NCBI GenBank assembly: GCA_964518425.1
Contig: CAZFGG010000001.1
Coordinates: 54,597-118,596, forward strand
Origin: an uncultured Gammaproteobacteria bacterium
Lineage (GTDB): Bacteria; Patescibacteriota; Patescibacteriia; SBBC01; CAIJZX01
Direction of reading: 5' to 3'
DNA: 64,000 nt
The notes under the pieces were generated by a model. The model saw only the letters and a list, made by a program, of their open reading frames with translations. It did not search any database and was not told the origin of the DNA. Position numbers and translations under genes: made by a program. Positions 15,758 through 54,818 of the stretch are shown here, one piece after another. Every line of letters begins with the position of its first letter. Position 1 is the stretch's first letter.

Positions 15758-15763
15758 ACGACT

Positions 15764-20128: not shown

Positions 20129-20129
20129 T

Positions 20130-23100: not shown

Positions 23101-23720
23101 GACCCGAGTCTAGCGGTCCGAGTGGATCGACGCCCCCTCCACCGAATGGACCATCAGGCGGAGGAGCGGGGCGAGCTGGCCGCCGACCCTCTGGAGGAGG
23201 ATCTGGCCAAGCCTATCGGCAAGCTCAGCGAGCTCAACCCCCATCCCCGGGATCACCAATTGTTGTCCCAAGCGATGCGGATTTTCCATCCGATGAAGAA
23301 CGAAGCCGTGATCCTCGAATCGAACGACTCTCGCCAAAGCAAAAGGAACTTCGTAACAAAGTCGTTCAGCTCAGAGACGTTGTGGCCGGGGACAACGCGC
23401 TGACGTCGGATGATCGCCGCAACCTGAGAGAAGCTTTTGAAACAATCTTGAGTGAGCGCGATCAGGCACGGTTCCAAGCATTGATTCAATACGCTAACAA
23501 GGGCGGCAAACTCTCGGCTACAGAGAAGAAACAGTTTGAGGATCTTCTCGTAACCCTGGGGGCTGCTGATACGACGTATCAACAACCCGGCGCTGCTCGT
23601 AGTAGGAGCAGTAATCTAGGAGCTTCAACACCTTCCGAAAAAAGAACGATTCGTGATGCCGAGGCTGAAATTATTGAAGAGCCGCCAAGTCCTCCTCAAC
23701 AACCGAAGGAGAATTCATGA
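20130..23720 (+). CDS. Large polytopic membrane protein, VirB6/TrbL-like (Gram-positive PrgH/TcpH/ConG-type architecture) with long low-complexity C-terminal domain
   Basis: Starts 2 nt after upstream stop; about 8 predicted TM helices in first about 330 aa, followed by about 850-aa hydrophilic domain with coiled-coil, Gly/Ala-rich (GGGKGGTAAAAAAGVAAGVAG) and Pro-rich tracts. Homology call by architecture/genomic context only. Confidence 0.45.
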   Translation: MKRFLSRLRRIPHRWALLSSLVIVVVLIVIWPSPARADVQQVIFSDILSPIVTAMIRLFALLTAYIVGLLILVAQQNNFINSAPVVTGYPIVRDLANMIFIIALLIIAAGTILRLENYRYNRLLGRLIVMAFLVNLARFITGFFIQTSQVFMLTFVNAFKDIALGNFANMFGLDVVLKFSQQNPTATDASLFMTLVGGLAMMIIAFCVILAVVVILIVRIVALWILTILSPLAYALRIIPNTERYASQWWSEFGKYVVSGPVLAFFLWLALALSAGSANQSSVLFQSVNGTSGANANLTNQVQQQLAPIQKDFVTEIFSMPRLMTFIVSIIFLMMGMQYASKSGGAGAGFAKRIYEKGLGVGATATGLNAIRSQINERAVAPVQGWIKNRQAARQGRIQERTAALESAGARIRSQAPVMPGILGREGRERAAASAQNIEGQRTQQFIQSRGLQNLPHDDVMTRFLTTTGREQLAAMTVLKDRGRINLQDPNQEKAFNQAMAWNRVPEGDRLKMREEIFRSNMGGMDENSIRARLGASTDPEQRIQFAQELQRRQLLKVGRAEDEQISAGLLNDLAANPERLQAARESMMKTNPDMAKKVIFGSLADSSSRRAFLSAIQQKQMNPSALNHAVQDTFARAGEAAAIGNFLNQISPDAETLNSYRRQMDPEAAQEIFSHLTIADDASAEERQKVARVTGEWGKAFTQSNGTFLTAKNSDGTSKKNSDGSDVTLAQEFASKLGGEEISKNISLQALKDQNVLQSLRRSDNMKASHWEALRKRNKETRAALEEGLKGYADHLGAEAYDKQGNIILDLEKLGGNEDRFKENEFVVRNLMLASKGKENRYNLADEKARQAFERLVSGASAADLSDITKSPVYAAHTDTVNLLFGWKGKMNEVAEMLTENYQFAVDAMKETEKTLTEKIKAGGREGSIAYNRLKEMSKHPILSNYIAYPEKPSEGGGKGGTAAAAAAGVAAGVAGMAAAGGMGGSSQPGPESSGPSGSTPPPPNGPSGGGAGRAGRRPSGGGSGQAYRQAQRAQPPSPGSPIVVPSDADFPSDEERSRDPRIERLSPKQKELRNKVVQLRDVVAGDNALTSDDRRNLREAFETILSERDQARFQALIQYANKGGKLSATEKKQFEDLLVTLGAADTTYQQPGAARSRSSNLGASTPSEKRTIRDAEAEIIEEPPSPPQQPKENS

Positions 23721-24918: not shown

Positions 24919-26010
24919 ATGGCTACCAAGGAGAAGAAAGGCTTACCCGAAGGATGGGAAGTCCCAATGGGAGCTGCCGCACAGGCCATCCTGAAGAGAA
25001 TCGTCAACGCCTCACTCGACTGGGTCGAGCGGGTCGATCGTGATCTCTTCTTGTCGGCCGCCTGGATCTACACTAACGAGTCAGCCGATAACATCAAGCT
25101 CTGGACTCAGGGTTCGTTTCTGGCGGGAGCGACGCTCCTCGAAAACATCGCCGACCATTTGCCAGTCTGGGAATGGATGCGGGAGGTGATCGAACGCGCC
25201 GGTCCCGACTTGCCGAACCTGGTCAGTCAGTACTTCAAGCTTCGTCAAGCACGCGGAACGCTCAACTTCCCGCCGGACTTCAAACCTCTGACGAGCGACG
25301 AAGCCAAGAAGAAATTGGCCCAGTTCGGAACAAAGGTCCAGGAAGCGTTCAGGGCAAGGTTGGAAAAATCCATACCGATCTTTGCGCGTCTTCGACAGCG
25401 CTGGGATGACCTGGTCGCCCGACTCAAGGGCGACGGCGAATTCCGGCACCATAGCTATAAAGCTTTCCGTCAAGCCTTTCTCGACGCCAATGATGAAGAA
25501 CGAGAACTGATCGTGGCCGCCTTCTGGGGCCCGCCCAACGCGGAAGAAGATCAACGGCTTCTTTCCGAACAGGAACTCTGGAACTTCAAGAAGGCTCACG
25601 AGTACTTCGGCGACAAGGAGAAGTTGGAGAAAATGGCCCGAATGAAACGGCGCCACCTTCGCTTCTTCCTGGCTATGGAAGATCAGGACGACTGGTTTAA
25701 TTTCCTGTCGCCTGATCTGAAAAAGAAATTCAAGGCCATCGTCACCGATGGCTATCAAACAACTGGTCACTTAGCCGACGACCTGGGCGGATGGAACGAC
25801 CGAATGGAACGGCGTTTGGACATCAGAAAGACCAATCAGCAGATTCAGCAAGGTGTTACCACGGGAATACTGCTGATGATCGGAGCAATCGCCTGTTTCA
25901 TGGGTGGCCGCCCCCTACCGGGCACCATCCTCTCGGTCGTCGTAGTCGCGATGGCCATATACTTCCTCTTGGCTCTGCGCAAGCAGCATAAGGAGACAGC
26001 CAATGGCTGA
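24919..26010 (+). CDS. Hypothetical protein, cytoplasmic domain with C-terminal double-TM anchor; first gene of a compositionally distinct 2-gene cassette
   Basis: 363 aa; strong SD; C-terminal hydrophobic stretch GVTTGILLMIGAIACFMGG...ILSVVVVAMAIYFLLAL; codon usage visibly shifted to AAG/GAG and C/G-ending codons relative to flanking genes. Confidence 0.55.
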   Translation: MATKEKKGLPEGWEVPMGAAAQAILKRIVNASLDWVERVDRDLFLSAAWIYTNESADNIKLWTQGSFLAGATLLENIADHLPVWEWMREVIERAGPDLPNLVSQYFKLRQARGTLNFPPDFKPLTSDEAKKKLAQFGTKVQEAFRARLEKSIPIFARLRQRWDDLVARLKGDGEFRHHSYKAFRQAFLDANDEERELIVAAFWGPPNAEEDQRLLSEQELWNFKKAHEYFGDKEKLEKMARMKRRHLRFFLAMEDQDDWFNFLSPDLKKKFKAIVTDGYQTTGHLADDLGGWNDRMERRLDIRKTNQQIQQGVTTGILLMIGAIACFMGGRPLPGTILSVVVVAMAIYFLLALRKQHKETANG

Positions 26011-27160
26011 CGAGAAGAAGCCGGAGGCCGCTGAGACGAAGGGTTCTTCAACCCATCGCGCTTGGTGGCAAGAAGTGCTGCTGAACATTCCGAAGGAACT
26101 CTATGGGTTCCTTAGCCTCGGACCGTTTGTACTCCTGATCTGGGGGATCTACCGTGACGAAAACGGTCGACGCCTGACAAAGGAGATGATCCGCAGCGGC
26201 AAGATCCTCTGGAAGTGGACGAACGAGGAATTCAACCGTTTGATCGGCGTGATCAACGTCGCGCTGCTGTTCATCGTCGCGATCAGCGGACTGCTTCTCT
26301 TCGGCATCTCGACCCCCAGTCAGTATTCATTCTGGGGAAGCGTCTGGCCCAACACCGTCCTTAACCGGACCTACCTCGGCTTGCCACTGATGCTGCTGGT
26401 GGTGTTCTGGATCGTCCAGATGATCTTCACCTTTTCCCGGCCGCTCATCGCGATCGGCTTGGCGGAGAAGTGGCTGACCAAGGACCGCAAGGACGAAGTC
26501 TTCGCCATTCGGTTCGTCCGGATGCAATTCAAGTTCGCGGGATGGTACGCCTTTGGGTTTACCGTTCTGAACGCGGTCACCTGGTACCACGAACCTGGCG
26601 CTCTGGCCATCGCGGTCCCGGGCTTACTCATCTACCCGCTGTTCTGCAATGCCTGGCGGCGTGGAGACTCGGAACATGTCCGGCGGACGGTCCTCATCGG
26701 GAACGCCTTCCTGGAAATGTGCTGCGTCATCTTCGCTTCTGTGCCGGGGTCATGGCATGGCCTGACGTCATTGGCCATCGGCGACAAAGTCATCGGTCCT
26801 TACGTCGCCCTGATCCTATTCTTCTCACTCGGCCTGCTGGCGGTTTCCCTCGGTCGAATCAAGACTGGGGAAGACAAAGCCCGCATCGCGAAAGCACAGT
26901 ATGACGAGCTCAAGGATGTTGACTTGGGTCGTGTAGCGGCCATCAAGTCATTGCTGAATGATGATTCCAAGTCAAACCGGACTGCCGCGTCACCAATGGG
27001 GTACTCGTACTCACAACCAGACACAGCCTGGGGGCGTCCGGTCCAGCCGCTCTCGCGCACCTCGGAGATTTTCCAGGCGATAATCGGCATCTTGCTTCTG
27101 TCCGCCGTCTTCATGGGTGCTGTCTACATGTTCAACCTGTACATGACCCGCAAGCCGTAA
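26003..27160 (+). CDS. Hypothetical polytopic membrane protein (about 8 TM), second gene of cassette
   Basis: 8-nt overlap (ATGGCTGA) with upstream gene; multiple hydrophobic helices; same AAG/GAG-rich codon usage; followed by a clear intrinsic terminator. Confidence 0.55.
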   Translation: MADEKKPEAAETKGSSTHRAWWQEVLLNIPKELYGFLSLGPFVLLIWGIYRDENGRRLTKEMIRSGKILWKWTNEEFNRLIGVINVALLFIVAISGLLLFGISTPSQYSFWGSVWPNTVLNRTYLGLPLMLLVVFWIVQMIFTFSRPLIAIGLAEKWLTKDRKDEVFAIRFVRMQFKFAGWYAFGFTVLNAVTWYHEPGALAIAVPGLLIYPLFCNAWRRGDSEHVRRTVLIGNAFLEMCCVIFASVPGSWHGLTSLAIGDKVIGPYVALILFFSLGLLAVSLGRIKTGEDKARIAKAQYDELKDVDLGRVAAIKSLLNDDSKSNRTAASPMGYSYSQPDTAWGRPVQPLSRTSEIFQAIIGILLLSAVFMGAVYMFNLYMTRKP

Positions 27161-27315: not shown

Positions 27316-28800
27316 ATGGAAGATATTTGGCAACAATTCCACCGTTTGCCGAAGACGATACGCGACTCCGTCGCTACGCCGGAAGCCTTGGCGACAGTGG
27401 ATCAACTTGAGCGCCAGCACCCAGGCCTTGATTTGGCTGGTTTTATCATGCGCGCCATGGTCAAGGAATTTCCTATCAATGAACTCAGTCAGAAGATGAG
27501 TCAGGAGGCTAAGCTCGATCAGCCAACCGCGGACGCGGTTACCCAAGAGTTAACGGCTAAGGTTTTTGGTCAACTCAGGGAATATCTTGGACTTCCGGCT
27601 AAGGTATCAGCACCAACAGTCATTCCGCCCACGCCACCACCGGCTCCGGTTCAACCTAAGACTGTTCCACCAATCCCGACAGCAGTACTAAGCCCGCTGG
27701 ATCAACCGAAAAAGGTCGTGCCAGCACCCCCAATCCAGCCGCTCGTTCCACTCGTCACGACCATGGCGGCTCCCCGGCCGGCCACGATGACGAATGTCGC
27801 CCCGACCCAAAATTACTCTGAAGATGATGACCAGGAGATTGCCCAGCAGGCCCGCCGCGTCAAAGATATCGCCGCCAGTTCAGAGACCATCGACCTTGAT
27901 ACGATCGTCGAACAAGTCATGCGCCAGCACAATTTGGCTTTCCGTGATGAGCTGCTGCAAAAGCGCGTCGTGTCCCTGTTGAAAGCTCGACTAAAAGGTA
28001 TCCGCGATTCTGATGACACGAAAGCGATGCTCATGCGGACACCGAAAGTCGGTGGCCTCGGCCTCGATCCAGATGTATCAGCCAACGTTGTGACGAGTCT
28101 TGACCAGGCGGCTGGACGTTTGAAAACGCGGGGCGCAGTTACCCCGCCACTACCAATCGCCCCGCCGCCTCCGCCGGTGGTTCCCCGCATTGAGCCAGAG
28201 CGTCCTGCTCCGAAACCGCCCCTGACGCGAGGCCTACCGCCAGAGAACCTACCGCTGGCGGCCAGCACGCCGCTCCCGAACGTGACCGATCAGCCGCGGC
28301 CGGCCCCGCTCCTGAAACGGCCGGCTGATATTCCCGCGCCGCCCCCAATAGCTGCAGGTCCCGCTCCGTTTGCCCCCAGCCCCCGACCGACCGCTCCGGC
28401 GAACCGACCGCTCATCACCCGGGAACGGTTGCCAGAACGACAAAACATTTCCGATATTACCCGCCCGAATATTCCGGTCATGGGGCCGGCTGGTGAAATG
28501 AGTAGTTTAACCCTGATGGAATTCCGTCGTCTTGGCCAGGGGGCATCCGACTCAGCCAATCGTTTACTCGAAAAATTCAAGCACTACCAAAAAGAATCCT
28601 TTCCGCTCTGGGCCGAAGCGATCGCTGGCTGGCGGCAAAGCGAAGTCCATCGGATCTATCTTGACATGGGCCGACAAAGCCTTGACCAGGGCACGCCGAT
28701 TACGCAAGTCATTCAACAACGGGCCAAGTCCGGCTTGCCATATTTATCCGAACACGAATTCGCTATTGTCTCGGATCTCAACCGTCAGCTCCAACTCTAA
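27316..28800 (+). CDS. Proline-rich hypothetical protein (494 aa)
   Basis: Long PPxP/PxP-rich central region (TPPPAPVQPKTVPPIPT..., PPLPIAPPPPPVVPRIEPERPAPKPP), structured N- and C-terminal domains; first gene after promoter; antisense Gly/Arg-rich ORFs are mirror artefacts. Confidence 0.55.
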   Translation: MEDIWQQFHRLPKTIRDSVATPEALATVDQLERQHPGLDLAGFIMRAMVKEFPINELSQKMSQEAKLDQPTADAVTQELTAKVFGQLREYLGLPAKVSAPTVIPPTPPPAPVQPKTVPPIPTAVLSPLDQPKKVVPAPPIQPLVPLVTTMAAPRPATMTNVAPTQNYSEDDDQEIAQQARRVKDIAASSETIDLDTIVEQVMRQHNLAFRDELLQKRVVSLLKARLKGIRDSDDTKAMLMRTPKVGGLGLDPDVSANVVTSLDQAAGRLKTRGAVTPPLPIAPPPPPVVPRIEPERPAPKPPLTRGLPPENLPLAASTPLPNVTDQPRPAPLLKRPADIPAPPPIAAGPAPFAPSPRPTAPANRPLITRERLPERQNISDITRPNIPVMGPAGEMSSLTLMEFRRLGQGASDSANRLLEKFKHYQKESFPLWAEAIAGWRQSEVHRIYLDMGRQSLDQGTPITQVIQQRAKSGLPYLSEHEFAIVSDLNRQLQL

Positions 28801-28803
28801 GCT

Positions 28804-29283
28804 ATGCCTAACCAATTCGTCGTACCACAATTTATCGACGTCGAGGATAAAATTCTCGGACCAATTTCCGTTCGCCAGTTTATTATCGTCTTAACCGGTA
28901 CGGGCTTGGTGGTTGGCGCTTACCAGATCCTCTACAAGCTGGCGAATCAGTTCATTCTCTTTATCGTCAGCGCCCTGGGTATCCTGGCCGGTGTCCTGAT
29001 GTTCGCCTTTATCAAGGTCAACGGGCGACCGTTTCACCTCTTCGTCCTCAACCTTCTCCAGTCAGTCAAAAACCCCCATCTTCGTATTTGGAATAATCAA
29101 ATGGCCGAAATATTGCAATATCGGAAAGAGCCGCCCCCGCCACCTCCGCTGCCCTTAAAACAACCACTGACGAAAACAAATCTGGCAAAATTGGCGTTGC
29201 TGGTTGATACTGGCGGGGCCTATCACGAAGACGACGATCTGCTCTACATCGGCCAACCTCTCGCCCCCTCACCTCCACGTTAA
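28804..29283 (+). CDS. Small two-TM membrane protein, PrgI/VirB3-like (T4SS)
   Basis: 159 aa; N-terminal PQFIDVEDKILGPISVRQFIIVLTGTGLVVGAYQI + second TM LFIVSALGILAGVLMFAFIKVNGRPFHLF, the PrgI-family pattern; located directly upstream of VirB4-like ATPase as in Gram-positive conjugation loci. Confidence 0.45.
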   Translation: MPNQFVVPQFIDVEDKILGPISVRQFIIVLTGTGLVVGAYQILYKLANQFILFIVSALGILAGVLMFAFIKVNGRPFHLFVLNLLQSVKNPHLRIWNNQMAEILQYRKEPPPPPPLPLKQPLTKTNLAKLALLVDTGGAYHEDDDLLYIGQPLAPSPPR

Positions 29284-29286
29284 ATC

Positions 29287-30028
29287 TATGGCCACGACCT
29301 CTGCCAAAAATAAGAATCTGGTTCGGAAAAAAACGGGTATCTCTACCCAGCAGTACTTAGATATTTTAGAAATTCGTGACGACGCCGTCATTTTGAAGAA
29401 CGGAACGATCTTAGCGGTGATTCTCGTGGCCTCGATCAATTTCTCGCTCAAATCGGACGAAGAACAAGACGCGGTTATCGAAGCCTACGTTTCGTTCCTC
29501 AACACCATCGATTTCCCCCTGGAAATCGTCATTCAATCGCGTCGCTTGAACATCGATGAGTATTTGGAAATGCTCAAGAAAGTCGAGAAGCAGCAGACGA
29601 ACGAACTGCTCCAGATTCAAACCCGGGAATACCGTCAATATGTGGCCGAACTTGTCCAAATCGCTGACATCATGACCAAGCGGTTCTATGTCGTCGTTCC
29701 CTTTTCATCGAAAGTTGATCGCCCCGGGAAATTCTTTAGCCGATTAGCCGATATTCTCAATCCTACATCGACTATCCATCTCAAGCAGAAACAGTTTGAA
29801 CAATACCGTCTAGAATTGTACAAGCGAGTGGATAACGTTTCGAACGCCTTAGCTTCAGCCGGATTGAAATCGGCGGTCTTGGACACCCAAAGCCTGATCG
29901 AACTGTACTATAATTCCTATAATCCCGAGACGGCCCGCCAACAACAAGTCGCCGATGTCGATAAACTGAGCCTGGAAGACGTTTCCAGTATTAAAGAAGA
30001 TGTCCCGGGTAAAGAAAAACGAACCTAA
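29287..30028 (+). CDS. Hypothetical soluble protein between VirB3-like and VirB4-like genes; weak resemblance to VirB4 N-terminal-domain pattern
   Basis: 247 aa from ATG 29287 (MATTSAKNKNLVRKK...); segment DILEIRDDAVILKNGTILAVILVASINFSLKSDEEQDAVIEAYVSFLNTIDFPLEIVIQSRR resembles CagE/TrbE/VirB4 N-domain consensus; no Walker motifs. Confidence 0.35.
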
Positions 30029-30039
30029 TCTCGAACGGA

Positions 30040-31962
30040 ATGCCTGATATTAACCTCTCCAGTCCAAAAATTTTCCGCGACCAGCCTTCTCCGGCCACGC
30101 GAGAATTACCGCGGGCCCCATCCGACGAACGTGAACTGATCGAAGCCGAACGGATTTACCGCCAAGGAGTTGTTACGGTTCGCGACTTAATCGCGCCGGC
30201 CGCTCTGAAGATTGACGCTCGGTACCTTCAGTTGAATGGGCAATTCGTCCGGACGCTGTTTGTTATTAGCTATCCTCGCTACATTTCCGTTGGGTGGTTC
30301 GGGCCGATCATCAATTACAACGCCCCGCTCGACATTTCTATGTTCTTTTACCCCATCCCCTCGGATGTTATTTTGAAGCAATTGCGGAACAAGGTTGGGG
30401 CTTTAGAAGCCCAGCTCTTGGCTGATAGCGAAAAAGGTGCGCCGCGCGACCCTGTTCGGGAAACAGCGCTCCGAGACATCGAGAAACTTCGGGACGACTT
30501 AACACAAGGCACTGAACGTTTTTTCCAGTTCGCCTTGTATGTCACGCTCTACGCGCCGTCGGCAAAAGCCCTTGATGATTTGACAAGCAAAGCCGAAGCT
30601 ATCTTCGGTTCACGTTTAGTCTTTACGAAACGAGCCTTTTTCCAGGCTGAACAAGGATTCACGTCAACCCTGCCGCTTGGCCTTGACCAGCTTCAGGTGA
30701 CGTTCAACATGAATTCGTCACCGATTGCTTCGAGCTTCCCGTTCGTCTCGGCCGATCTCTCGAGTGACAGCGGTATCCTCTACGGCATCAACCGGCACAA
30801 CAATTCGCTCATCCTGTTTGACCGGTTCGGCCTACAAAACCCTAACTACACGGTCTTTGCGACGGCTGGATCTGGTAAATCGTATGCCGTGAAATTAGAG
30901 GTTTTACGGTCAATGATGTTCGGAACGGACATTATTATCGTTGATCCGGAGCACGAGTATAAATACCTGTCTGATGCTGTTGGCGGAACCTACATTAATA
31001 TCTCCCTCAATTCCCAGACAAAAATTAATCCGTTCGATCTGCCCCGCCAGGCAAGCGGCGATGAAACCACGGCCGACATTATTCGTTCAGCCGTCATCAC
31101 CCTCAAATCTATGTTCCGGTTGATGCTGGGCGATGTCACTCATGAGGAAGATTCCATTATTGACCGCGCTCTGCTTGAAACCTACGCCAAGAAAGACATT
31201 ACGCCTGACGCCGATTTAGCCAACGTCGTTCCGCCGGTCATGACTGATTTCGAAGAAGTTTTGTCCGGCATGACCGGCGCCGAAGGGCTCGTTGAACGGT
31301 TGAAAAAATATACCCAAGGCACCTTTGCCGGACTTTTCAATTCACCGACCAACATTGAATTGAATAATCAACTGGTCGTTTTCTCTGTCCGTGATCTCGA
31401 AGACGAACTTCGACCGATCGGTATTTCGATTATTATCTCGTACGTCTGGAATATTGCTCGCTCGAAACTGAAGCGGCGTATGCTCGTGATTGATGAAGCC
31501 TGGTGGTTGATGCAGCACGAAGACTCGGCTAAATTTATCTACGGCCTGGTTAAGCGCTCACGGAAATACTACCTGGGTGTGACGACGATTACCCAGGACG
31601 TCAACGACTTCCTCCTCTCGCCATATGGCCAAGCGATTATCAATAACTCAGCCTTAGCGCTCTTGATGAAGCAGTCGCCGGCAGCCATTGATATCGTGAC
31701 GAAAACGTTCCTCCTGACCCAACAGGAACGTTACCTTCTGCTCGAGGCCGGTGTTGGCGAGGGCATTTTCTTCGCTGGCACGAAACATGCAGCGATCAAG
31801 GTGGTCGCATCATACGCGGAAGACCAAATCGTTACGACCAATCCGCAACAGTTACTGGAAATAGAAAAAGCCAAAAAAGAGTTTGAGCAGTCCGTGGCGG
31901 CCGGTACAGCCACGAACGCCGGTACGGCCATTCGCTCGCCCGAGGAATTGAACAGCCTGTAA
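30040..31962 (+). CDS. virB4: VirB4/TraC/PrgJ-like T4SS ATPase
   Basis: 640 aa; N-terminal Gram-positive VirB4 pattern (YLQLNGQFVRTLFVISYPRYISVGWFGPIINYNAPLDISMFFYPI); Walker A FATAGSGKSYAV (about 30853-30888); VirB4-typical Walker B hhhhDEAW (MLVIDEAWWLM, about 31480-31512). Confidence 0.8.
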   Translation: MPDINLSSPKIFRDQPSPATRELPRAPSDERELIEAERIYRQGVVTVRDLIAPAALKIDARYLQLNGQFVRTLFVISYPRYISVGWFGPIINYNAPLDISMFFYPIPSDVILKQLRNKVGALEAQLLADSEKGAPRDPVRETALRDIEKLRDDLTQGTERFFQFALYVTLYAPSAKALDDLTSKAEAIFGSRLVFTKRAFFQAEQGFTSTLPLGLDQLQVTFNMNSSPIASSFPFVSADLSSDSGILYGINRHNNSLILFDRFGLQNPNYTVFATAGSGKSYAVKLEVLRSMMFGTDIIIVDPEHEYKYLSDAVGGTYINISLNSQTKINPFDLPRQASGDETTADIIRSAVITLKSMFRLMLGDVTHEEDSIIDRALLETYAKKDITPDADLANVVPPVMTDFEEVLSGMTGAEGLVERLKKYTQGTFAGLFNSPTNIELNNQLVVFSVRDLEDELRPIGISIIISYVWNIARSKLKRRMLVIDEAWWLMQHEDSAKFIYGLVKRSRKYYLGVTTITQDVNDFLLSPYGQAIINNSALALLMKQSPAAIDIVTKTFLLTQQERYLLLEAGVGEGIFFAGTKHAAIKVVASYAEDQIVTTNPQQLLEIEKAKKEFEQSVAAGTATNAGTAIRSPEELNSL

Positions 31963-32529: not shown

Positions 32530-33198
32530 ATGGCCGATCTTGACCAAGCCACTCTCGATAGCCCCGAACTCCAGCAGCAGGCTGCTCGGGAACTCCGTCG
32601 ACAACAGTTCGCCGAACTGAAAACTGGCCGTTTACCAACGGCAAAAGCGACGACTGAGGAAAATACTTTTGGCCGACCGGAGTACGTCAAACAAGCTGAC
32701 CGACAAGCGCGATTACAGGGCCTACGTTCAGCACGAAAAACAATAGAACGAGTAGGATCAACCACGCCGGGAGAAGAGCTTCAAGCCCAACTATCATCGG
32801 TTGCCCTTCAAGCCTATACCCGTCTATGGCAGCAAGGCCATGAACTGGTCGAAGGCCTGGCCTTCCAATTCTTCATGGTCGGCGCGTTTCTCGTGGCGCC
32901 AATCGCCGACCTCATGTTTGGTGCCCGGTTGCTCATCGGTAAAGCTATGAACGGCGGTTTTCAGATTGAGTTCCAAGGAATTTCCGTACCGGCCGTCCCG
33001 GATATCAGTGCTGTTGAATCAGCCTACCGTGGCGGAAAGTTAATATTTATCTCTTTGATCGGTCTTCTGGAATGGGCGATTATCGTCGTGACCATCCAAA
33101 TCGTGACCCATCCGACGGACGCCATAAAACTTGGCTTTCAGGCCATTGTTCAAGCTCTCGGTTTAGCCGGTTCAACGACTCCATCTTCCGGCCAATGA
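32530..33198 (+). CDS. Hypothetical membrane protein (hydrophilic N-terminus, hydrophobic C-terminal half)
   Basis: 222 aa; C-terminal TM helices (FQFFMVGAFLVAPIADLMF..., LIFISLIGLLEWAIIVVTIQIV). Confidence 0.4.
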   Translation: MADLDQATLDSPELQQQAARELRRQQFAELKTGRLPTAKATTEENTFGRPEYVKQADRQARLQGLRSARKTIERVGSTTPGEELQAQLSSVALQAYTRLWQQGHELVEGLAFQFFMVGAFLVAPIADLMFGARLLIGKAMNGGFQIEFQGISVPAVPDISAVESAYRGGKLIFISLIGLLEWAIIVVTIQIVTHPTDAIKLGFQAIVQALGLAGSTTPSSGQ

Positions 33199-34160
33199 TC
33201 CTTCGTCGCGCCATCATTCTGATCCTTCTTGGCTTGGCTTTCTTCACGCACCCAGTTCGAGCCGCCAACGTTATCACTGACCCGCTTCAAGCCGCCCAAA
33301 AACCAATTACCATTACTCCCGAGGTCCCTATTCCCGGGGTCTACACCGGTCAGCAAACAATTGATAATAATGGTATTGCTCGCTACATCCGAGCGATCTA
33401 CGTCTATTTTATTTGGACGGTTGGTATCCTCGCCGTGGTGATGATTATGTTCGGTGGCATCAGCTGGATCGCCGCCGCCGGTAATGCTGGTCGGATCAAT
33501 GATGCTCGTGAGACGATTAATAACGCCATCATTGGGTTGATTATTGCCCTGACCTCGTACGCCTTACTCTACGTCATCAATCCGGAGTTGTTAAATCTGT
33601 CTTTGCCCCCGGTCGGTTCGCTGACGAATGAATCCATTGCTGGTCTGCCGATTGTCGACTTTTGTGATCCGGCGAATCACCTTGATTGCGGGTCTGTTGG
33701 TAAGCTGGGAAGCGCATTTGATAAGAATGGCAAGGCCGTTGATGTTTTTTGCGCCGGGACCATCTGCCCGAGTGACAGCCTCTGTCAACTCAACCAGGCA
33801 GCGGTTCCCGTTGCCGATCAGTTGACGACGAGTAAGACCGGATTTTCGACGACGTATACAAGTTACTATCCCGCCGTCGGATGCCAAAAAACCGTCCAGG
33901 TGGATAATCCAGCCGGAATATACACGACCTCCGGTCCGCTGAAGGTGGCCTTCGATACAACCTTTAACCTAACGACATTCGGGGGCAGCTTAAACTGTGG
34001 CCGGGCCTATGGTAATATCGATATTCTGGGGAATAATTGTGACACCTCCGACGCCGCGCTCAATACGAAGAGCATTTGTATCATGATTGGCGCGAAGGCT
34101 AAGCTGCAAACAACAACCGGCAACAATGATAAGGTATCGAATACCCAGTGCACCCCCTAA
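33195..34160 (+). CDS. Pilin-like (VirB2/TrbC-like fold) N-terminal module fused to Cys-rich C-terminal domain
   Basis: ATG 33195 overlapping upstream stop; signal peptide MILRRAIILILLGLAFFTHPVRA; two hydrophobic helices separated by basic loop (ARYIRAIYVYFIWTVGILAVVMIMFGGISWIAAAGNAGRINDARETINNAIIGLIIALTSYALLYVINP); about 60% identical over this module to ORF 35426. Confidence 0.5.
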   Translation: MILRRAIILILLGLAFFTHPVRAANVITDPLQAAQKPITITPEVPIPGVYTGQQTIDNNGIARYIRAIYVYFIWTVGILAVVMIMFGGISWIAAAGNAGRINDARETINNAIIGLIIALTSYALLYVINPELLNLSLPPVGSLTNESIAGLPIVDFCDPANHLDCGSVGKLGSAFDKNGKAVDVFCAGTICPSDSLCQLNQAAVPVADQLTTSKTGFSTTYTSYYPAVGCQKTVQVDNPAGIYTTSGPLKVAFDTTFNLTTFGGSLNCGRAYGNIDILGNNCDTSDAALNTKSICIMIGAKAKLQTTTGNNDKVSNTQCTP

Positions 34161-34176: not shown

Positions 34177-35424
34177 ATGAACCCTAACCTCCGCCGCTTA
34201 CTGCTCATCGCCGGCTTCGCCCTAGTCACGGTTGGCTGGTTCTTCGCGATTTACTTCATTTTCTTCCGGCCGTCCGCCCCGATTGCTCGAAACAACGCCA
34301 ACGGGTTTGTGAATGGTCTTCCCGTGCCGACGAACGGGAACGTCAACCGGGTCGTTCTGCCCGGGAATGTTAATGCTCTACCGAACATCAACGGTACTAT
34401 TGCTGGCCCGAGTCTCGTCGCGAATGGGGGAGCCACCATCACAGAAACGATTACCAGTCAATCAACCAGCGCCCTAACCTCGACGGCCGATCACTTAGCT
34501 TTGCAGTACTATGATCGGCAAACCGGTCAGCTCTATACTCTCTCCTCCGATGGAACACAACGGACTTTGCTGACCTCGGATACCTATCCCGGCGCCCAAT
34601 CGATCAGCTGGTCACCCGACGGTCACCAAGCCATTCTGACCTTCCCCGATGGATCGAAAATTCTCTATGACTTTACCCTGAAAAAGCAAATTACCCTTCC
34701 GAAGGAACTGAATGATTTTTCCTTCTCTCCGCAATCTGATCAAATCGTTTCAAAATATCTTGATCCAACAAACCAGGATAACCAATGGTTGGTCATCAGC
34801 CAACCCGACGGATCACAGTCAGTCAGCGTTGAGCAGCTAGGCGCTAATGCCGGCGCGGTGACGCCCGACTGGTCGCCGAATAATCAAATCGTCGCGACCT
34901 ACGAAAAATCAACGAACGCCGACCAGTCAGATATTTTCTTCCTGGGCAACCAAGGCCAAAACTTCCCCTCCGTTTCGGTTCAAGGACGCGGTTTTACCCC
35001 GAATTGGTCGCCCGATGGTCGACGCCTGTTATTCAGTACCTACAGCACCTTAACTGATGATAATCCCCATCTTTTTATTATGACCGGCAGTCCGGATCAG
35101 CTCGGGGCCAGCCAAATTGATCTGGGCCTCGACACGCGAGCTGATAAATGCACTTTTTCACAGAACGGCTTCAATATTTACTGTGCCGTTCCTTACTACC
35201 TCAATCCGGGATCAGGGCCGCAGCCGGGCCTGTCAGCCAATATTCCGGATAATATTTATAAAATTGACTTGCTGACCGGGAACTCAACCCTCGTCGCTCG
35301 CCCGGTTGACCAGCAGAATAGCCAACGGTTCAGCGCGACGAACCTCCAACTCTCGGCGGCCGAAGATTCGCTCTTCTTTACTGACAACCAGACCGGCTCG
35401 ATTCAGCGAATCCGTTTGCGGTAG
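34177..35424 (+). CDS. Membrane-anchored TolB-like beta-propeller protein (PD40/WD40-like WSPDG repeats)
   Basis: N-terminal TM (LLLIAGFALVTVGWFFAIYFIFF); repeated ...SWSPDGHQAIL..., ...DWSPNNQIVA..., ...NWSPDGRRLLFS... blades typical of TolB C-terminal domain. Confidence 0.55.
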   Translation: MNPNLRRLLLIAGFALVTVGWFFAIYFIFFRPSAPIARNNANGFVNGLPVPTNGNVNRVVLPGNVNALPNINGTIAGPSLVANGGATITETITSQSTSALTSTADHLALQYYDRQTGQLYTLSSDGTQRTLLTSDTYPGAQSISWSPDGHQAILTFPDGSKILYDFTLKKQITLPKELNDFSFSPQSDQIVSKYLDPTNQDNQWLVISQPDGSQSVSVEQLGANAGAVTPDWSPNNQIVATYEKSTNADQSDIFFLGNQGQNFPSVSVQGRGFTPNWSPDGRRLLFSTYSTLTDDNPHLFIMTGSPDQLGASQIDLGLDTRADKCTFSQNGFNIYCAVPYYLNPGSGPQPGLSANIPDNIYKIDLLTGNSTLVARPVDQQNSQRFSATNLQLSAAEDSLFFTDNQTGSIQRIRLR

Positions 35425-35425
35425 T

Positions 35426-36601
35426 ATGATCGAGCGTCGTCATCGGTTTTCTCTCCTGGTCGGCTTGGTTCTGGCGGTCTTCGTTTTCCTGGTCTCACCG
35501 GTCAAGGCCGCCAATGTATTCACTGACCCGGGGAATGCGGCCAGCAAGCCGATCACGTTTACTCCGGAAATCGTCATTCCGACATTCAGCGGAAATGGGG
35601 AAATTACCGTCACCGGCCAAACGATTGCTAACTACATTCGAGCTATTTTCGTGTACTTTATCTGGATCGTTGGTATTCTGGCCGTCGTTATGGTGACGTA
35701 TGGCGGCATTCGCTGGGTTGGTGCGGCCGGTAATCCGGGTCGGATCAACGACGCCCGGTCAATCGTCAACAATTCTTTGATCGGCCTGATCATCGCCCTG
35801 ACCTCAGTCGTCCTGCTGAATACGATCAATCCAGACCTAACGAAGTTTCAAGGCATCACGATCGCCTCGGTGTCGCAAGAACAGCTCGATTTTTTGAAAG
35901 ACATTAAGACCAGCGCCGGTCCGTTCTCACAATGTTCAAATACCAAAGTTGCGGGTCAACCGAGTCAAGTCTGCAGTGGGCCAACCGTTGGGGCCGGCCC
36001 GAACGGTGACGTGACCGCCGGCTGTCTTGACCTCAATGCCTTGGTCAATAAGTCGGCCTTCGGTCAACTCGATCCCTTTGCCATTAAGGCCATCACCATG
36101 ATCGAAAGTCCGAAACAGAATGGGCAACCATTTTCTGGTCCGAACCCGAGTTCTGCCTCGTCGGCGTACGGCGTTGGACAGTTCTTAGAGCCGACCCTCA
36201 AGCAGGTTTTGGCTCATGTGAATAATGGTGGTTTACCGCCCGGCTGTCGCGACAACGAAATTTTGGCTCCCGATGGTTTTCACGTTAGTCAAGCCTGTAA
36301 AGCCTGGCTCGATAAACGGACCGGCGGAGCGCTCGGATCGGGAGTATCGGGCCTGGAAGCCCAGATCGGCATGATCGCCAGTTACTTTGGGCAACAGCTT
36401 AACGATCAAAAGTGCGTCAAAGGCGATTATGAACTTGCCGCGGCGGCCTACAACCAAGGCTTAGGCGGAGCTTCAGACGCCTTCTGTTCAACTAGCTACC
36501 TCCGTGATCCCAACAAGAAAGCTCAAGTCAAAGCCGACGCGCTCGATTATATTGCTAAATTCAAGCAATATTACGCCCAGGCCTGCAGCAGTGGTCAGTA
36601 G
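35426..36601 (+). CDS. Pilin-like N-terminal module fused to a lytic transglycosylase (SLT/VirB1-like) domain
   Basis: ATG 35426 2 nt after upstream stop; N-terminal 150 aa paralogous to ORF 33195 (ANYIRAIFVYFIWIVGILAVVMVTYGGIRWVGAAGNPGRINDARSIVNNSLIGLIIALTS); C-terminal SLT motifs: ...MIESPKQNG (catalytic E-S), ...AYGVGQF (GLMQ-like), ...AAAYNQGLGG (AYNAG-like). Confidence 0.6.
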   Translation: MIERRHRFSLLVGLVLAVFVFLVSPVKAANVFTDPGNAASKPITFTPEIVIPTFSGNGEITVTGQTIANYIRAIFVYFIWIVGILAVVMVTYGGIRWVGAAGNPGRINDARSIVNNSLIGLIIALTSVVLLNTINPDLTKFQGITIASVSQEQLDFLKDIKTSAGPFSQCSNTKVAGQPSQVCSGPTVGAGPNGDVTAGCLDLNALVNKSAFGQLDPFAIKAITMIESPKQNGQPFSGPNPSSASSAYGVGQFLEPTLKQVLAHVNNGGLPPGCRDNEILAPDGFHVSQACKAWLDKRTGGALGSGVSGLEAQIGMIASYFGQQLNDQKCVKGDYELAAAAYNQGLGGASDAFCSTSYLRDPNKKAQVKADALDYIAKFKQYYAQACSSGQ

Positions 36602-38659
36602 TTACTCCGGGTGAAACTGTACGGACACATCTTCCGATGCATGAAGTTGGTGTTGCAACTCTAGCTGCTGTTTCGGGCTAAGTTCTCGACTAAAAGCCGT
36701 TACTTTTTTGAAGAGGTCAGTATCCGACAGGCTGGCGAGCTGCCACGATGGTAGACCGGATTGACGTTGTCCATAGAGGTCGCCACCGCCGCGTTCGTGT
36801 AAATCAATTTCGGCGATCGCTAAGCCGTCGGTTGTGTCGGCAACTCGCTGTAATCGCTGGCGGATAGCGCTCGACGACTGATCGGTCACGAGGAGGCATG
36901 AGCTCGGGAGACTGCTCCGCCCAACCCGCCCACGTAGCTGGTGAAGTTGGGCTAGGCCAAAACGCTCTGCTCCCTCGATGACGATCAGTGTGGCGTTGGG
37001 CACATCAACCCCGACTTCGATAACAGTCGTGCTGACAAGAACATCGAGATCGCCTTGACGAAAATGGTTAAGAATCGCCACTCGGTCTCGGCTGGGCATA
37101 GCCCCATGCAGAAGGCCTAAGCGGAGATGAGGAAACATCTCTCGTAACCGTTGATATTCGGTCGTCGCCGCCCGAACACCCAAGCTGTCCGATTCCTCAA
37201 TCAGGGGGGTAATGACATAAACGTGTTGTCCGGCGCTGGCCGTACGCTCAATTTGTTGGTCAACGGTGGCCCGGTCAGACGGACCCATGACCGACGTCGC
37301 AACCGTTACCCGCCCCTGAGGCTTGGTCTTGATTGTGCTGACAGACAATATGCCAGACAGCCACAAGGCGAAGCTGCGAGGGATGGGGGTCGCTGATAAA
37401 CTGAGAAAGTGCGGGCTATTGGCGTGGCCATCGAGTAGCGCTTGGCGCTGTTCAACTCCAAAGCGCTGTTGCTCATCAATGACAACCAAGCCAAGCTGGT
37501 GCCAGGGAACATCTGGTTGAAGCAGGGCGTGGGTTCCGATGGCAATTTGAATATCACCGGACGACAGGCGTTCAAGAAACTCTCGGCGAGAGATTGATCG
37601 ATTGTTTGCTTTTGCTTGCTGCCCAGTCAGCAAGGCAATCGTGAGCTCGCGTCCTGCCAGCAGCTGCGTTAATGTCTGCCAATGCTGTTCGGCTAAGACG
37701 ACTGTTGGCGCGACCAGGGCAACTTGGAGATGGCTCAGGACGACGTTGTAGCTGGCTAGCGCGGCCACGACGGTTTTTCCTGAACCGACGTCACCCTGGA
37801 CCAGCCGTGACATCGGTTTGGTTTGAGTGATATCTTGAAGAATTTGCCATGCGGTAACTCGCTGGTCGGCTGTCAGATCGAAGGGTAAATGCTGGACAAA
37901 AGACCGCACCTCAGTTTCTCGAAACGGGATCGCAGGTGCCGGCTTGAGCACTGCGGCGCTTTGAGTTCGAACTAAGTTGAGATGCCAAGCCAAGAGCTCA
38001 TCGAATTTCAACCGCTGAACCGCCTCATGTCCTTGCTCAGGAGTTTCAGGAAAATGAATGTGACGCAAAGCCTCAGGTAAGGACATCAAACCAAATTCTT
38101 TGATGGCCGTGGATGGTAAAGGATCAGGGATGAGGCTGACCAGGCCCACCGCATGTTTCATGACAATCCGGAATTGACGTTGTGAAAGTCCCTCGGTCGT
38201 GCGATAGACGGGAACAAGCTTTTCGTGCAAAGGCTCGGCTGACGACAACTTTTCAAACAAGGGGTTACTCAACTGCAACCGGCCATCGCTTCCGCTGGTG
38301 ACCGTGCCCGAGAGAAAAAGACGGTCGTTGACCTTCAGCGTCTTCGCTAAGAACGGCAAGTTGAACCAGGCCACCTTGAGCTTTGCCCCGGATTCATCAG
38401 TCACGGTCACGTCGGTGACGGTCATCCCTCGCCGCCGCCATGATCGCCGGGCCGATAACCGAGTAATCGTCGCTTCAATCGTCACGTCCTGACCGATATG
38501 GAGATCACGAATCAGGCTGCGTTTTCGCCAGTCTTCATGACGGAAGGGGAACGTCAACAGGGCATCGTGCAAGGTGACGATACCGAAAAGTTCAAATTTC
38601 TTAGCAATCGGCAACTGCATTCGAGGCAACTGGCGAATCGGTGTCTGGAGGCCAAGCAT
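36602..38659 (-). CDS. recG: ATP-dependent DNA helicase RecG
   Basis: 685 aa; Walker A DVGSGKTVVAALA, DEQQ box VVIDEQQRFGV, helicase C-terminal motifs (LHGAMPSRDR..., VSTTVIEVGVDVPNA, QLHQLRGRVGR); N-terminal wedge/OB region. Confidence 0.9.
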   Translation of the reverse strand: MLGLQTPIRQLPRMQLPIAKKFELFGIVTLHDALLTFPFRHEDWRKRSLIRDLHIGQDVTIEATITRLSARRSWRRRGMTVTDVTVTDESGAKLKVAWFNLPFLAKTLKVNDRLFLSGTVTSGSDGRLQLSNPLFEKLSSAEPLHEKLVPVYRTTEGLSQRQFRIVMKHAVGLVSLIPDPLPSTAIKEFGLMSLPEALRHIHFPETPEQGHEAVQRLKFDELLAWHLNLVRTQSAAVLKPAPAIPFRETEVRSFVQHLPFDLTADQRVTAWQILQDITQTKPMSRLVQGDVGSGKTVVAALASYNVVLSHLQVALVAPTVVLAEQHWQTLTQLLAGRELTIALLTGQQAKANNRSISRREFLERLSSGDIQIAIGTHALLQPDVPWHQLGLVVIDEQQRFGVEQRQALLDGHANSPHFLSLSATPIPRSFALWLSGILSVSTIKTKPQGRVTVATSVMGPSDRATVDQQIERTASAGQHVYVITPLIEESDSLGVRAATTEYQRLREMFPHLRLGLLHGAMPSRDRVAILNHFRQGDLDVLVSTTVIEVGVDVPNATLIVIEGAERFGLAQLHQLRGRVGRSSLPSSCLLVTDQSSSAIRQRLQRVADTTDGLAIAEIDLHERGGGDLYGQRQSGLPSWQLASLSDTDLFKKVTAFSRELSPKQQLELQHQLHASEDVSVQFHPE

Positions 38660-53946: not shown

Positions 53947-54818
53947 TGAAGAAATCTTCAATTATTGCCATAAGTTTCTTAGCCCTGATCGTTAGCTGGA
54001 CATTCTGGCGTCAAACCGCCTTGGCCAGCCCCTCTTCAGGTTCAAGTACAACCTCGCCGACGACCGTCTACGATGGCGTCATCAGCGTCGCTCCGGGCGA
54101 TGTTGGGTCCGGGATTCTCGAACTTGGTTCGTCGGGGTCAGACATCGCTAGTTCGAGCGATATCTACGTGCGTCCAGAGCGGTTGTCTGAAACGAATGCC
54201 GTACGATTTTCGCCGAACGGGAAGTCCACCGTCCACCTTTACGCCTACGGCGGCCTTTGTCTCGGCGGTCTGTGCCGTGACACGTGGCCGGCGGTCAGCG
54301 GCGGGACCTTTTGGAACCTGGTTGGAGGCCAGTACGTTGAACCGGCTACCCTCAGCCAAGGCGTAACGTTTACCAAGACCCGCGCCGGCGGCGGGGCGGC
54401 CATGGAAGTTTTTTCGAACAACACGACTGCGGCCGCCTATATCAGCAATGTCAGCGCTGGCGCTAGTGCGGCGGCCTTAACAATCAACGGCCCGGCGTAT
54501 ATCGGAGGTGACCTGAATGTCACGGCCAGCGGCGGAGATGAAATTACTCTGCACGGCGGCGTCTGCCAGGGCGGTCCGGCCGACGGTGTCATCTGCTCGA
54601 GTAGCCCCAATTGTTCGCCGGGAATATGCGCGATTAGTGATTACCGGGTCTGGTGGTCGGGTAATGATGGCCGTGGGTCGGGGCTTGACGCGTCAAAGCT
54701 CGACGGGATTGATTTGGACTTTAAATACAACATCAGCAATAGCTCATGTAATTCCGGCTCGCTCAATTGCTTGTGTGGACAGTTTCCGAGTTTCACCGAA
54801 TGCTTAAAACTTCAATGA
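53946..54818 (+). CDS. Secreted protein, family member 4
   Basis: ATG 53946 overlapping upstream TAA; signal peptide MKKSSIIAISFLALIVSWTFWRQTALA; VYDGVISVAPGDVGSGILELGSSGSDIASSSDIYVRPE; GGLCLGGLCRDTWPAV. Confidence 0.55.
   Translation: MKKSSIIAISFLALIVSWTFWRQTALASPSSGSSTTSPTTVYDGVISVAPGDVGSGILELGSSGSDIASSSDIYVRPERLSETNAVRFSPNGKSTVHLYAYGGLCLGGLCRDTWPAVSGGTFWNLVGGQYVEPATLSQGVTFTKTRAGGGAAMEVFSNNTTAAAYISNVSAGASAAALTINGPAYIGGDLNVTASGGDEITLHGGVCQGGPADGVICSSSPNCSPGICAISDYRVWWSGNDGRGSGLDASKLDGIDLDFKYNISNSSCNSGSLNCLCGQFPSFTECLKLQ

Follow-up and report, generated by a model that had tools for sequence, protein, structure and literature searches.

A VirB2-type pilin hairpin joined to a divergent GH23-like domain in a chromosomal type IV secretion gene cluster of Patescibacteria

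The open reading frame (ORF) at positions 35426-36601 of a 64-kb stretch of DNA from an uncultured bacterium (contig CAZFGG010000001.1; "the window" always means this whole stretch) encodes one protein chain, here called the target, in which a signal peptide and the two-helix hairpin of a type IV secretion system (T4SS) pilin precede a divergent lysozyme-like domain. The explanation that we prefer, and to which we would give about an even chance of being right, is that the gene encodes a dedicated peptidoglycan-cleaving T4SS subunit, i.e., a functional VirB1 carried on a VirB2-type hairpin, which would open the producer's own wall for a chromosomal, monoderm-type T4SS of Kerfeldbacteria or ABY1-like Patescibacteria. 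As would be expected of a VirB1-type protein, a predicted wall-cleaving domain is encoded within the cluster, by its last gene, and is conserved in the 14 loci that were compared. The components belong to known kinds of protein, the VirB1-type hydrolase and the VirB2-type pilin, and their union in one chain is common in this lineage, with no description found in the literature searched.

Domains of the target protein

Four parts can be recognised in the 391-aa product: a signal peptide, a two-helix hairpin, a short linker and a 226-residue domain that contains 8 Cys (Table 1). The comparisons draw on an AlphaFold2 (AF2) model of the target built on 28 homologues, with a mean predicted local distance difference test score (pLDDT) of 81.6, and on two alignments. 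The first (A1, also used as a profile) consists of 28 full-length relatives, including 3 fusions to a canonical SLT (soluble lytic transglycosylase) domain, and the second (A2) consists of the C-terminal domains (C-domains) alone of 25 divergent members, the canonical-SLT fusions having been removed.

The initial annotation had described the N-terminal part as a signal peptide and two hydrophobic helices around a basic loop, which is borne out by hydropathy and by the AF2 model; the module is a true hairpin rather than a signal peptide followed by one transmembrane (TM) segment. Three hydrophobic segments are evident on the Kyte-Doolittle scale, at residues ~9-27, ~66-99 and ~112-136. Signal-peptide features include an n-region with 3 K+R, a hydrophobic core that peaks at 2.67 on the same scale and V-K-A at positions -3 to -1, and cleavage would be predicted at VKA/AN. 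The AF2 helices of the hairpin lie at 64-99 and 104-134 (pLDDT ~78-83), and the loop between TM1 and TM2, RWVGAAGNPGRINDARS, has 3 K+R against 1 D+E, i.e., a net charge of +2. On residues 64-133 of the target, the Pfam T4SS_pilin family, PF18895, scores 37.1 bits (gathering score 26.6; E=3.3e-9), spanning profile positions 2-70 of 71, and it also matches 28/28 relatives. The likeness to VirB2 that had been proposed for this fold therefore stands as far as PF18895 is concerned, but the classical TrbC/VirB2 family PF04956, which is matched by 1/119 related clusters (6.7e-8), gives no match to the target at E<=0.1, and the tie to classical VirB2 is therefore indirect, through the PF18895 family. 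Paralogy with the product of ORF 33195, a second long pilin fusion (pilin-X), had also been claimed and is supported by 55% identity over 154 aa (E=6e-50).

The hairpin is better conserved than the C-domain, with a mean identity of 70% as compared to 45%, and 13/20 of the invariant columns of A1 fall within it, loop included. I134 and P136 are invariant at the end of helix 2 (I-N-P-x-L). A TM anchor with a purely passive role would not typically be conserved above the enzyme that it carries, and the pattern is in keeping with a specific protein contact. Ahead of the hairpin, P47 and P52 of an F-x-P-E-x-x-I-P motif are nearly invariant in the 28 relatives, and the motif is absent from the short pilin encoded elsewhere in the window. 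The linker that follows the hairpin is poorly conserved in A1, and the model is of low confidence there (pLDDT 57-65 for residues 131-150). In some orthologues (P0006, P0011, P0013, P0020 and P0023) the signal peptide is separated from the hairpin by a further 100-190 aa that are rich in Cys, and the P0063 and P0065 clusters have ~570-630 residues ahead of the matched region. It can be argued from the Cys-rich inserts that the N-terminal end of the hairpin is extracytoplasmic, and globular cargo would therefore be possible on both ends of the hairpin. When the isolated 108-aa pilin module was used as a homologue-search query, only 7 candidates were returned.

Within the C-domain, E227, G249, Q252, Y342 and G345 are invariant in the 28/28 members of A1, Y248 is nearly so, and Glu227 is likewise invariant in the 25/25 members of A2. 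The three SLT motifs that were quoted in the initial annotation are present as MIES (E227), YGVGQF (248-253) and AAAYNQG (339-345), and each has a counterpart in characterized enzymes: E227-S lines up with the catalytic RES of goose lysozyme, motif II with the GLMQ that is found in both EmtA and goose lysozyme, and AAAYNQG with AAYNxG of Slt70 and goose lysozyme (AAYNTG in the latter). The catalytic Glu of GH23 enzymes is located at the C-terminal end of a helix, and E227 ends helix 217-227 in the AF2 model, where the C-domain is compact, mostly helical and, from about residue 150, mostly at a pLDDT of at least 90. All 8 Cys of the protein are located in this domain (170, 183, 200, 274, 291, 330, 354 and 387), and between motif II and the AYNxG helix there is an insertion of ~70 residues with conserved Cys.

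Whole-protein searches of Pfam and NCBIfam and single-sequence searches of the PDB returned nothing beyond the pilin match and noise. The PDB matches obtained with A1 were set aside as proof of an SLT domain, since the three canonical-SLT fusions could have driven them. The A2 profile matches the goose-type lysozyme of Atlantic cod (3gxk) at E=3.4e-5, which is weaker than with A1, in two collinear stretches, one around the Glu and one around AYN-G, and it matches Slt70 enzymes at E ~0.2. Alignment of A2 to canonical SLT C-domains by hhalign scored 94.3% (E=9.7e-8), over the region from AYNxG to the end only. The assignment to the SLT group is based on the profile, on hhalign, on a Foldseek comparison and on the canonical SLT domains found in the same gene slot of other genomes, and not on the Pfam SLT family itself. 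Judged from its sequence, the C-domain is most readily classified as lysozyme-like, a divergent member of GH23 in which the catalytic Glu is preserved. The designation as a lytic transglycosylase, as first annotated, holds for the GH23/SLT type and the conserved Glu; a hydrolytic muramidase, which would generate a reducing end in place of the 1,6-anhydro-MurNAc made by lytic transglycosylases, would fit the sequence equally well, and among solved structures the best relative is a goose-type lysozyme.

Gene order across loci and exchange of the catalytic domain

The surroundings of the target were compared in 14 loci, consisting of the window, nine loci from GTDB species and four further loci. 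The order PrgI, VirB4-N, VirB4, x, pilin-X, beta-propeller, pilin-hydrolase and convergent recG was found in 14/14, at protein identities of 31-73% across loci; spelled out for the nine GTDB species, it is VirB4-N, VirB4, ORF31966, (ORF32530), pilin-X, propeller, pilin-fusion and recG. Exactly two long pilin fusions occur in every locus (14/14). The genomes from which homologues of the target derive are named Candidatus Kerfeldbacteria or Patescibacteria, and it is on these names that the assignment of the organism is based.

It is the catalytic domain of the last slot that varies. The window and five other loci have a C-domain that can be aligned with the divergent SLT-like domain of the window, while in L004, L005, L007 and L009 the same pilin module (module identity up to 73%) is followed by Peptidase_M23, with E=4e-15 to 2e-13 in those four species and HPGTDF ... 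PHLHLE visible in the sequence. Versions of the pilin fusion with Peptidase_M15_4 and VanY domains were also found. In two more distant genomes the slot is occupied by a fusion to a canonical Pfam SLT domain, namely P0052 (GCA_023898465.1; CP060223.1, a 1.08-Mb contig with the NCBI name Candidatus Nomurabacteria) and P0029, within the order PrgI, TraC-like, VirB4, x, pilin-X, propeller, pilin-SLT and recG. What stays constant is thus that a pilin module bears a domain of a wall-cleaving kind, irrespective of the bond that is cut. The genes recG and radA are common in the T4SS loci of class ABY1 (PMC12102498), a pattern that is matched by the window locus and by L010, the locus on CP060223.1.

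Two side observations concern individual loci. A gene of the DsbA/thioredoxin fold (L010:9366-10004) is located directly upstream of the pilin-SLT gene of CP060223.1 and overlaps it, which fits disulfide formation in exported Cys-rich domains. In a related genome, a pair of genes (L012:19970-20984) that resembles a cyclic-oligonucleotide-based antiphage signalling system (CBASS), with SMODS / CD-NTase followed by a Cap15-type effector, is located some 9 kb downstream from the T4SS genes.

How widespread such fusions are was assessed by searching 1.84 billion cluster representatives with a profile, the clusters being defined at 50% identity. There were 572 clusters at E<=1e-30, and the best 150 were all at least 278 aa long; according to local hidden Markov models (HMMs), 80 of these best 150 combine pilin and SLT, 25 in the divergent and 55 in the canonical form. 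Pfam detected T4SS_pilin in 118 of 119 previously unseen clusters, SLT in 56 (E<=0.001; the corresponding figure for the relatives in A1 is 4/28 at an E cut-off of 0.01), Peptidase_M23 in 8 and Peptidase_M15_4 in 3. In every homologue from the first search (61/61) the module is followed by 137 aa or more. The automatic names of members include "pilin", "transglycosylase SLT domain-containing protein" and "peptidoglycan DD-metalloendopeptidase family protein". The pilin-hydrolase architecture is therefore frequent in metagenomic Patescibacteria, and the initial view of it as an unusual arrangement is apt by comparison with the classical VirB1/VirB2 systems but not within this lineage, where fusion is the rule, as the 14 loci and the 80 clusters attest. 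In nine of the best 150 clusters (P0078, P0079, P0082, P0083, P0084, P0097, P0122, P0151 and P0163) the protein is a polyprotein, an odd form for a pilin, in which 2-6 T4SS_pilin hairpin modules follow one another in tandem, the six of P0163 being contained in 552 aa.

The coordinates of the target and of the T4SS genes around it are listed in Table 1. The target starts with ATG at 35426 and stops at 36599-36601, and the database copy of the protein (P0001) has the same length; a longer ORF from a TTG at 35306 was rejected, as it runs into the upstream gene and has no backing from homologues. The target is translationally coupled to the upstream propeller gene, whose stop (35424) is separated from the ATG by 1 nt. 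At the other end (36599-36604) the stop of the target abuts that of the convergent recG gene (ORF 36602-38659, minus strand), and with zero intergenic bases there is no space for a terminator between the two.

Table 1. Positions of the parts of the target and of the associated T4SS genes in the window
Feature	Position	Strand	Basis
Signal peptide, residues 1-28, MIERRHRFSLLVGLVLAVFVFLVSPVKA/AN (predicted cleavage)	35426..35509	+	Hydropathy; model helix 3-22
N-terminal segment, predicted extracytoplasmic, residues 29-63, F-x-P-E-x-x-I-P motif	35510..35614	+	Conservation in A1
VirB2-like pilin hairpin, residues 64-136, loop AAGNPGRINDAR, ends INPxL	35615..35833	+	PF18895; AF2; hydropathy
Linker, residues 137-165, short helix 151-164 within	35834..35920	+	Low pLDDT; poor conservation
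Divergent GH23 / SLT-goose-lysozyme-like domain, residues 166-391, 8 Cys	35921..36598	+	Profile comparisons; fold search
Predicted catalytic Glu227 codon, motif I (I-E-S)	36104..36106	+	Translation ITMIESPKQ; conservation
Motif II, Y-G-V-G-Q-F, residues 248-253	36167..36184	+	Conservation in A1
A-A-A-Y-N-Q-G motif, residues 339-345	36440..36460	+	Translation; conservation; sub-threshold Pfam SLT
PrgI / VirB3-like	28804..29283	+	PF12666 E=2e-9; conserved position
Separate VirB4 N-terminal (TraC-like)	29288..30028	+	Weak TraC_F_IV match; orthologues carry PF26593 TraC-like
VirB4-family ATPase (monoderm CD1110 type)	30040..31962	+	conju_CD1110 E=3e-105, 353 bits vs 325
Pilin-X, 321 aa, pilin module + variable Cys-rich C-domain	33195..34160	+	PF18895 E=3.8e-7; paralogy
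TolB/PD40-like beta-propeller, N-terminal TM anchor	34177..35424	+	NCBIfam TolB E=1.9e-10; Pfam PD40
Short stand-alone T4SS pilin, 110 aa	38715..39047	-	PF18895 E=4e-8

Three ORFs in the 64 kb contain the module according to the module HMM, i.e., the target, pilin-X and the short pilin, of which the last is the candidate major pilin; its match to PF04956 is sub-threshold (20.6 bits vs 27.9, E=5.3e-4). The C-domain of pilin-X is predicted to be all-beta (AF2 pLDDT 64), and Foldseek gave generic helical-hairpin matches. The propeller protein has its TM segment at residues 14-23 and is 50-72% identical across every related locus. Two small membrane proteins are encoded between VirB4 and pilin-X. 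The VirB4 ATPase matches Pfam P-loop_TraG (E=2.4e-30) in addition to the NCBIfam model conju_CD1110, and VirB4 is split into a TraC-like N-domain ORF and an ATPase ORF in different frames, a split that is kept in all related loci. In the gene table of Southlakia epibionticum, PrgI is separated from the ATPase gene (SEML1_0008) by an essential gene of 882 bp, SEML1_0009, and the layout there seems to correspond to that of the window. No coupling protein was identified among the cluster ORFs scanned.

The window is chromosomal, with genes for leucyl-tRNA synthetase (LeuRS), ClpB, RecG and three tRNAs. A phage origin of the target, as part of a holin-endolysin-like arrangement, found no support, there being no PHROGs matches and the surrounding genes being chromosomal housekeeping genes. 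Directly upstream of the T4SS genes there are four consecutive giant ORFs (5973-23720; 1878, 1383, 1454 and 1196 aa), 3/4 of which have Ig-like (immunoglobulin-like), fn3, BNR or DUF642 matches reminiscent of surface proteins. The 1196-aa ORF (20130-23720) has no Pfam match and several hydrophobic segments in its first ~330 residues, and it may be a VirB6-like channel protein; it and ORF 26003-27160 are the polytopic candidates in the window, whereas ORF 27316-28800 was dropped as a VirB6-like candidate for want of any hydrophobic segment. Farther away, the LeuRS-like ORF at 156-2429 starts with an editing domain and has a NUDIX domain (residues 193-312, E=2e-15) ahead of the catalytic core and anticodon-binding parts, and may be a split or mosaic LeuRS. 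At 54767-56857 is the gene for a 696-aa protein whose C-terminal part is a pretoxin-HINT domain (PF07591, E=3e-13), of a kind typical of polymorphic toxin systems, and downstream of it, past a 452-aa ORF (56861-58219), is a 1410-aa ORF with no Pfam match (58225-62457).

Explanations for the fusion

If the target is a pilin-anchored hydrolase that acts on the wall of its producer, it would be exported through Sec and lose its signal peptide, and its two helices would span the membrane such that both termini face outward and the conserved basic loop (AAGNPGRINDAR) faces the cytoplasm, leaving a disulfide-bonded GH23 domain at the outer face on a linker of ~30 residues. The C-domain is likely to be extracytoplasmic because all 8 Cys lie in it and because a DsbA/thioredoxin gene lies upstream in L010. 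The pilin module would dock the enzyme to the T4SS platform that handles pilin subunits (VirB4, VirB4-N and PrgI with polytopic partners), and Glu227 would cut the bonds between N-acetylmuramic acid and N-acetylglucosamine (MurNAc-GlcNAc) locally, by which the producer's wall would be opened for the machine or the pilus. It may reasonably be inferred, as was initially suggested, that by virtue of the fusion the wall would be remodelled where the apparatus is situated.

Several observations weigh against this explanation. The search with the SLT model of Pfam (PF01464) that the initial annotation had proposed remains sub-threshold on the target, with 13.6 bits vs 21.3 (E=0.052), and the partial match involves the AYNQG stretch alone (profile positions 83-105). 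Pairwise comparisons of the C-domain with canonical SLT fusions are marginal (E=0.003-0.008), and the top Foldseek matches in the PDB, MltE (prob 0.87, E=0.15) and MltD (0.80, E=0.41), have weak E-values. One orthologue of 354 aa (L008:9992-11053, P0073-like) is without the segment of ~40 residues that holds E-S and GxGQ, although the rest of the domain is retained; either the enzyme is dead by nature or the sequence was misassembled. The PDB sequence search found no solved PF18895 protein or Patescibacteria T4SS pilus, and hence "pilin" is itself a family annotation. Lastly, the distance from membrane to wall may exceed the reach of the ~30-residue linker, which would favour a module that is extruded.

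An extruded module is what the main competing explanation envisages, and although we think it unlikely on balance, it deserves serious consideration. It holds that the target is an enzyme-bearing minor or tip pilin, the module of which would be extracted and polymerised with the short pilin so that the hydrolase and the pilin-X domain are carried on the pilus and the wall of the host is breached, for purposes of attachment, effector delivery or nutrient/DNA uptake. Both termini of the pilin are on the pilus exterior in the VirB2-family pili solved so far, and the C-terminal domain of such a subunit would accordingly be displayed there. The short linker would suit this arrangement, the strong conservation of hairpin and loop suits lattice or lipid contacts, and the presence of one short pilin (in the window) alongside two long fusions per locus resembles a division into major and minor pilins at a locus where no VirB5-like tip protein was detected. 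Orthologues with globular Cys-rich domains N-terminal to the hairpin can be counted on the same side, as can the polyproteins, whose tandem modules suggest side-by-side packing. However, a 25-kDa domain on each subunit would be sterically incompatible with a VirB2 lattice, which would limit incorporation to sparse or terminal positions, Kerfeldbacteria are without a known host, and the evidence here would fit the self wall as well as the host wall; a T4SS pilus in Patescibacteria has been treated as a possibility only (PMC12857230).

Three other explanations are less probable. It is quite unlikely that the target is a pro-protein that is cut after helix 2, near I-N-P-x-L, to yield a mature pilin and a released hydrolase. 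RP4 TrbC and Ti VirB2 are proteolysed at the C-terminus, and such processing, together with the release of VirB1*, provides an analogy; the invariant I134/P136 at the end of helix 2 is followed by a low-confidence linker, and different catalytic domains are tolerated past the same junction. On the other hand, no TraF/S26-type maturation peptidase was found among the cluster genes scanned, and a stand-alone short pilin already exists. A housekeeping autolysin, i.e., a generic hydrolase of growth or division with the hairpin as a mere anchor and the T4SS as an incidental neighbour, seems very unlikely to us even though SLT and M23 enzymes commonly have a role in cell separation and recognisable autolysins are few in Patescibacteria, since it is contradicted by the order with VirB4 and PrgI in 14/14 loci that are as little as 31% and at most 73% identical, and since the anchor is a PF18895 module common to other T4SS pilins and is conserved above the enzyme. 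We consider it highly improbable that the GH23-like domain is a non-catalytic subunit that binds peptidoglycan or serves as a spacer to anchor the T4SS in the wall, an idea to which the divergence of the domain beyond Pfam SLT, the ~70-residue insertion and the L008 orthologue lend some credence, but which has against it the invariance of the catalytic Glu and its flanking motifs in 25/25 divergent members and the retention by the M23 replacements of their HxxxD...HxH metal-site residues.

Comparison with known systems and significance

With VirB1 and its monoderm counterparts PrgK (pCF10), TraG (pIP501), TcpG and CD419, the target shares a wall-cleaving domain of the GH23/SLT or M23/CHAP kind encoded within a T4SS cluster, as well as, in the monoderm proteins, an N-terminal TM tether and a presumed role in local wall opening; PrgK and TraG are peptidoglycan hydrolases essential for transfer (PMC12102498). 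The anchor of the target differs from these in being a complete PF18895 hairpin after a signal peptide instead of a simple TM helix, and there is a single catalytic domain where the monoderm counterparts have SLT+CHAP or LytM+SLT+CHAP. As compared to VirB1-type SLT domains, that of the target is divergent, below the Pfam threshold and endowed with 8 Cys and a large insertion. VirB1 homologues, as detected by the CONJScan profiles VirB1, TrsG and CD419, are poorly associated with virB4 in most classes (PMC12102498).

Closer to home, the essential pilin array of S. epibionticum (SEML1_0014-0019) resembles the target in its PF18895 match, its signal peptide and hairpin and its location beside VirB4/PrgI. 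Those pilins are of ~110-140 aa with no appended domain, whereas the target has ~255 extra C-terminal residues, and the wall hydrolases of S. epibionticum are separate proteins, SEML1_0006 (two lysozyme-like domains and a Cys protease) and SEML1_0007 (M15B). The target's module belongs to a subfamily with a W-V-A-A-A-G-N-P-G-R-I-N-D-A-R loop, an F-x-P-E N-motif and C-terminal extensions in 61/61 homologues from the first search. Slt70, MltE/EmtA, MltC, MltD, EtgA and the goose lysozymes have in common with the C-domain the Glu-Ser at a helix end, G-x-x-Q and A-Y-N-x-G, but the target is only ~15-18% identical to these GH23 enzymes and has its ~70-residue Cys-bearing insertion and four potential disulfides. 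The X-Tfes of Xanthomonas likewise couple a wall-degrading domain to a T4SS, with possible action on the wall of another cell. X-Tfes are reportedly soluble substrates with a C-terminal XVIPCD that is recognised by VirD4, and the target is unlike them in that it lacks an XVIPCD and has a pilin module and a signal peptide instead.

The T4SS is essential for epibiotic growth in the one Patescibacteria species tested, yet the role of Patescibacteria T4SSs has been called "completely unknown" in reviews (PMC11665869), and Patescibacteria have the only monoderm T4SSs with VirB2-like pilins (PMC12857230). A survey of Patescibacteria did not detect VirB1 in most genomes with VirB2, considered that other glycosidases could take that role and scored PF18895 matches as VirB2 (PMC12102498). 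Our comparisons suggest that, for clusters of the Kerfeldbacteria/ABY1 type, the missing wall hydrolase is hidden in proteins that a pilin profile scores as VirB2. Censuses of T4SSs that are based on profiles may, by the same token, arrive at too few VirB1-like functions and may include enzyme fusions in their tally of pilins. Should the two long fusions turn out to be minor or tip subunits of a pilus made mainly of the short pilin, the pilus would carry its own wall cutter (SLT-like or M23) together with a Cys-rich adhesin-like domain, and the T4SS of Patescibacteria would be a contact-dependent drill through the host wall, which would provide a mechanism for its essential role in epibiotic growth. 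The exchange of catalytic heads (SLT-like, canonical SLT, M23 and M15) on a highly conserved pilin module leads to a model in which pilin modules would serve as carriers of extracellular domains to, or onto, the T4SS.

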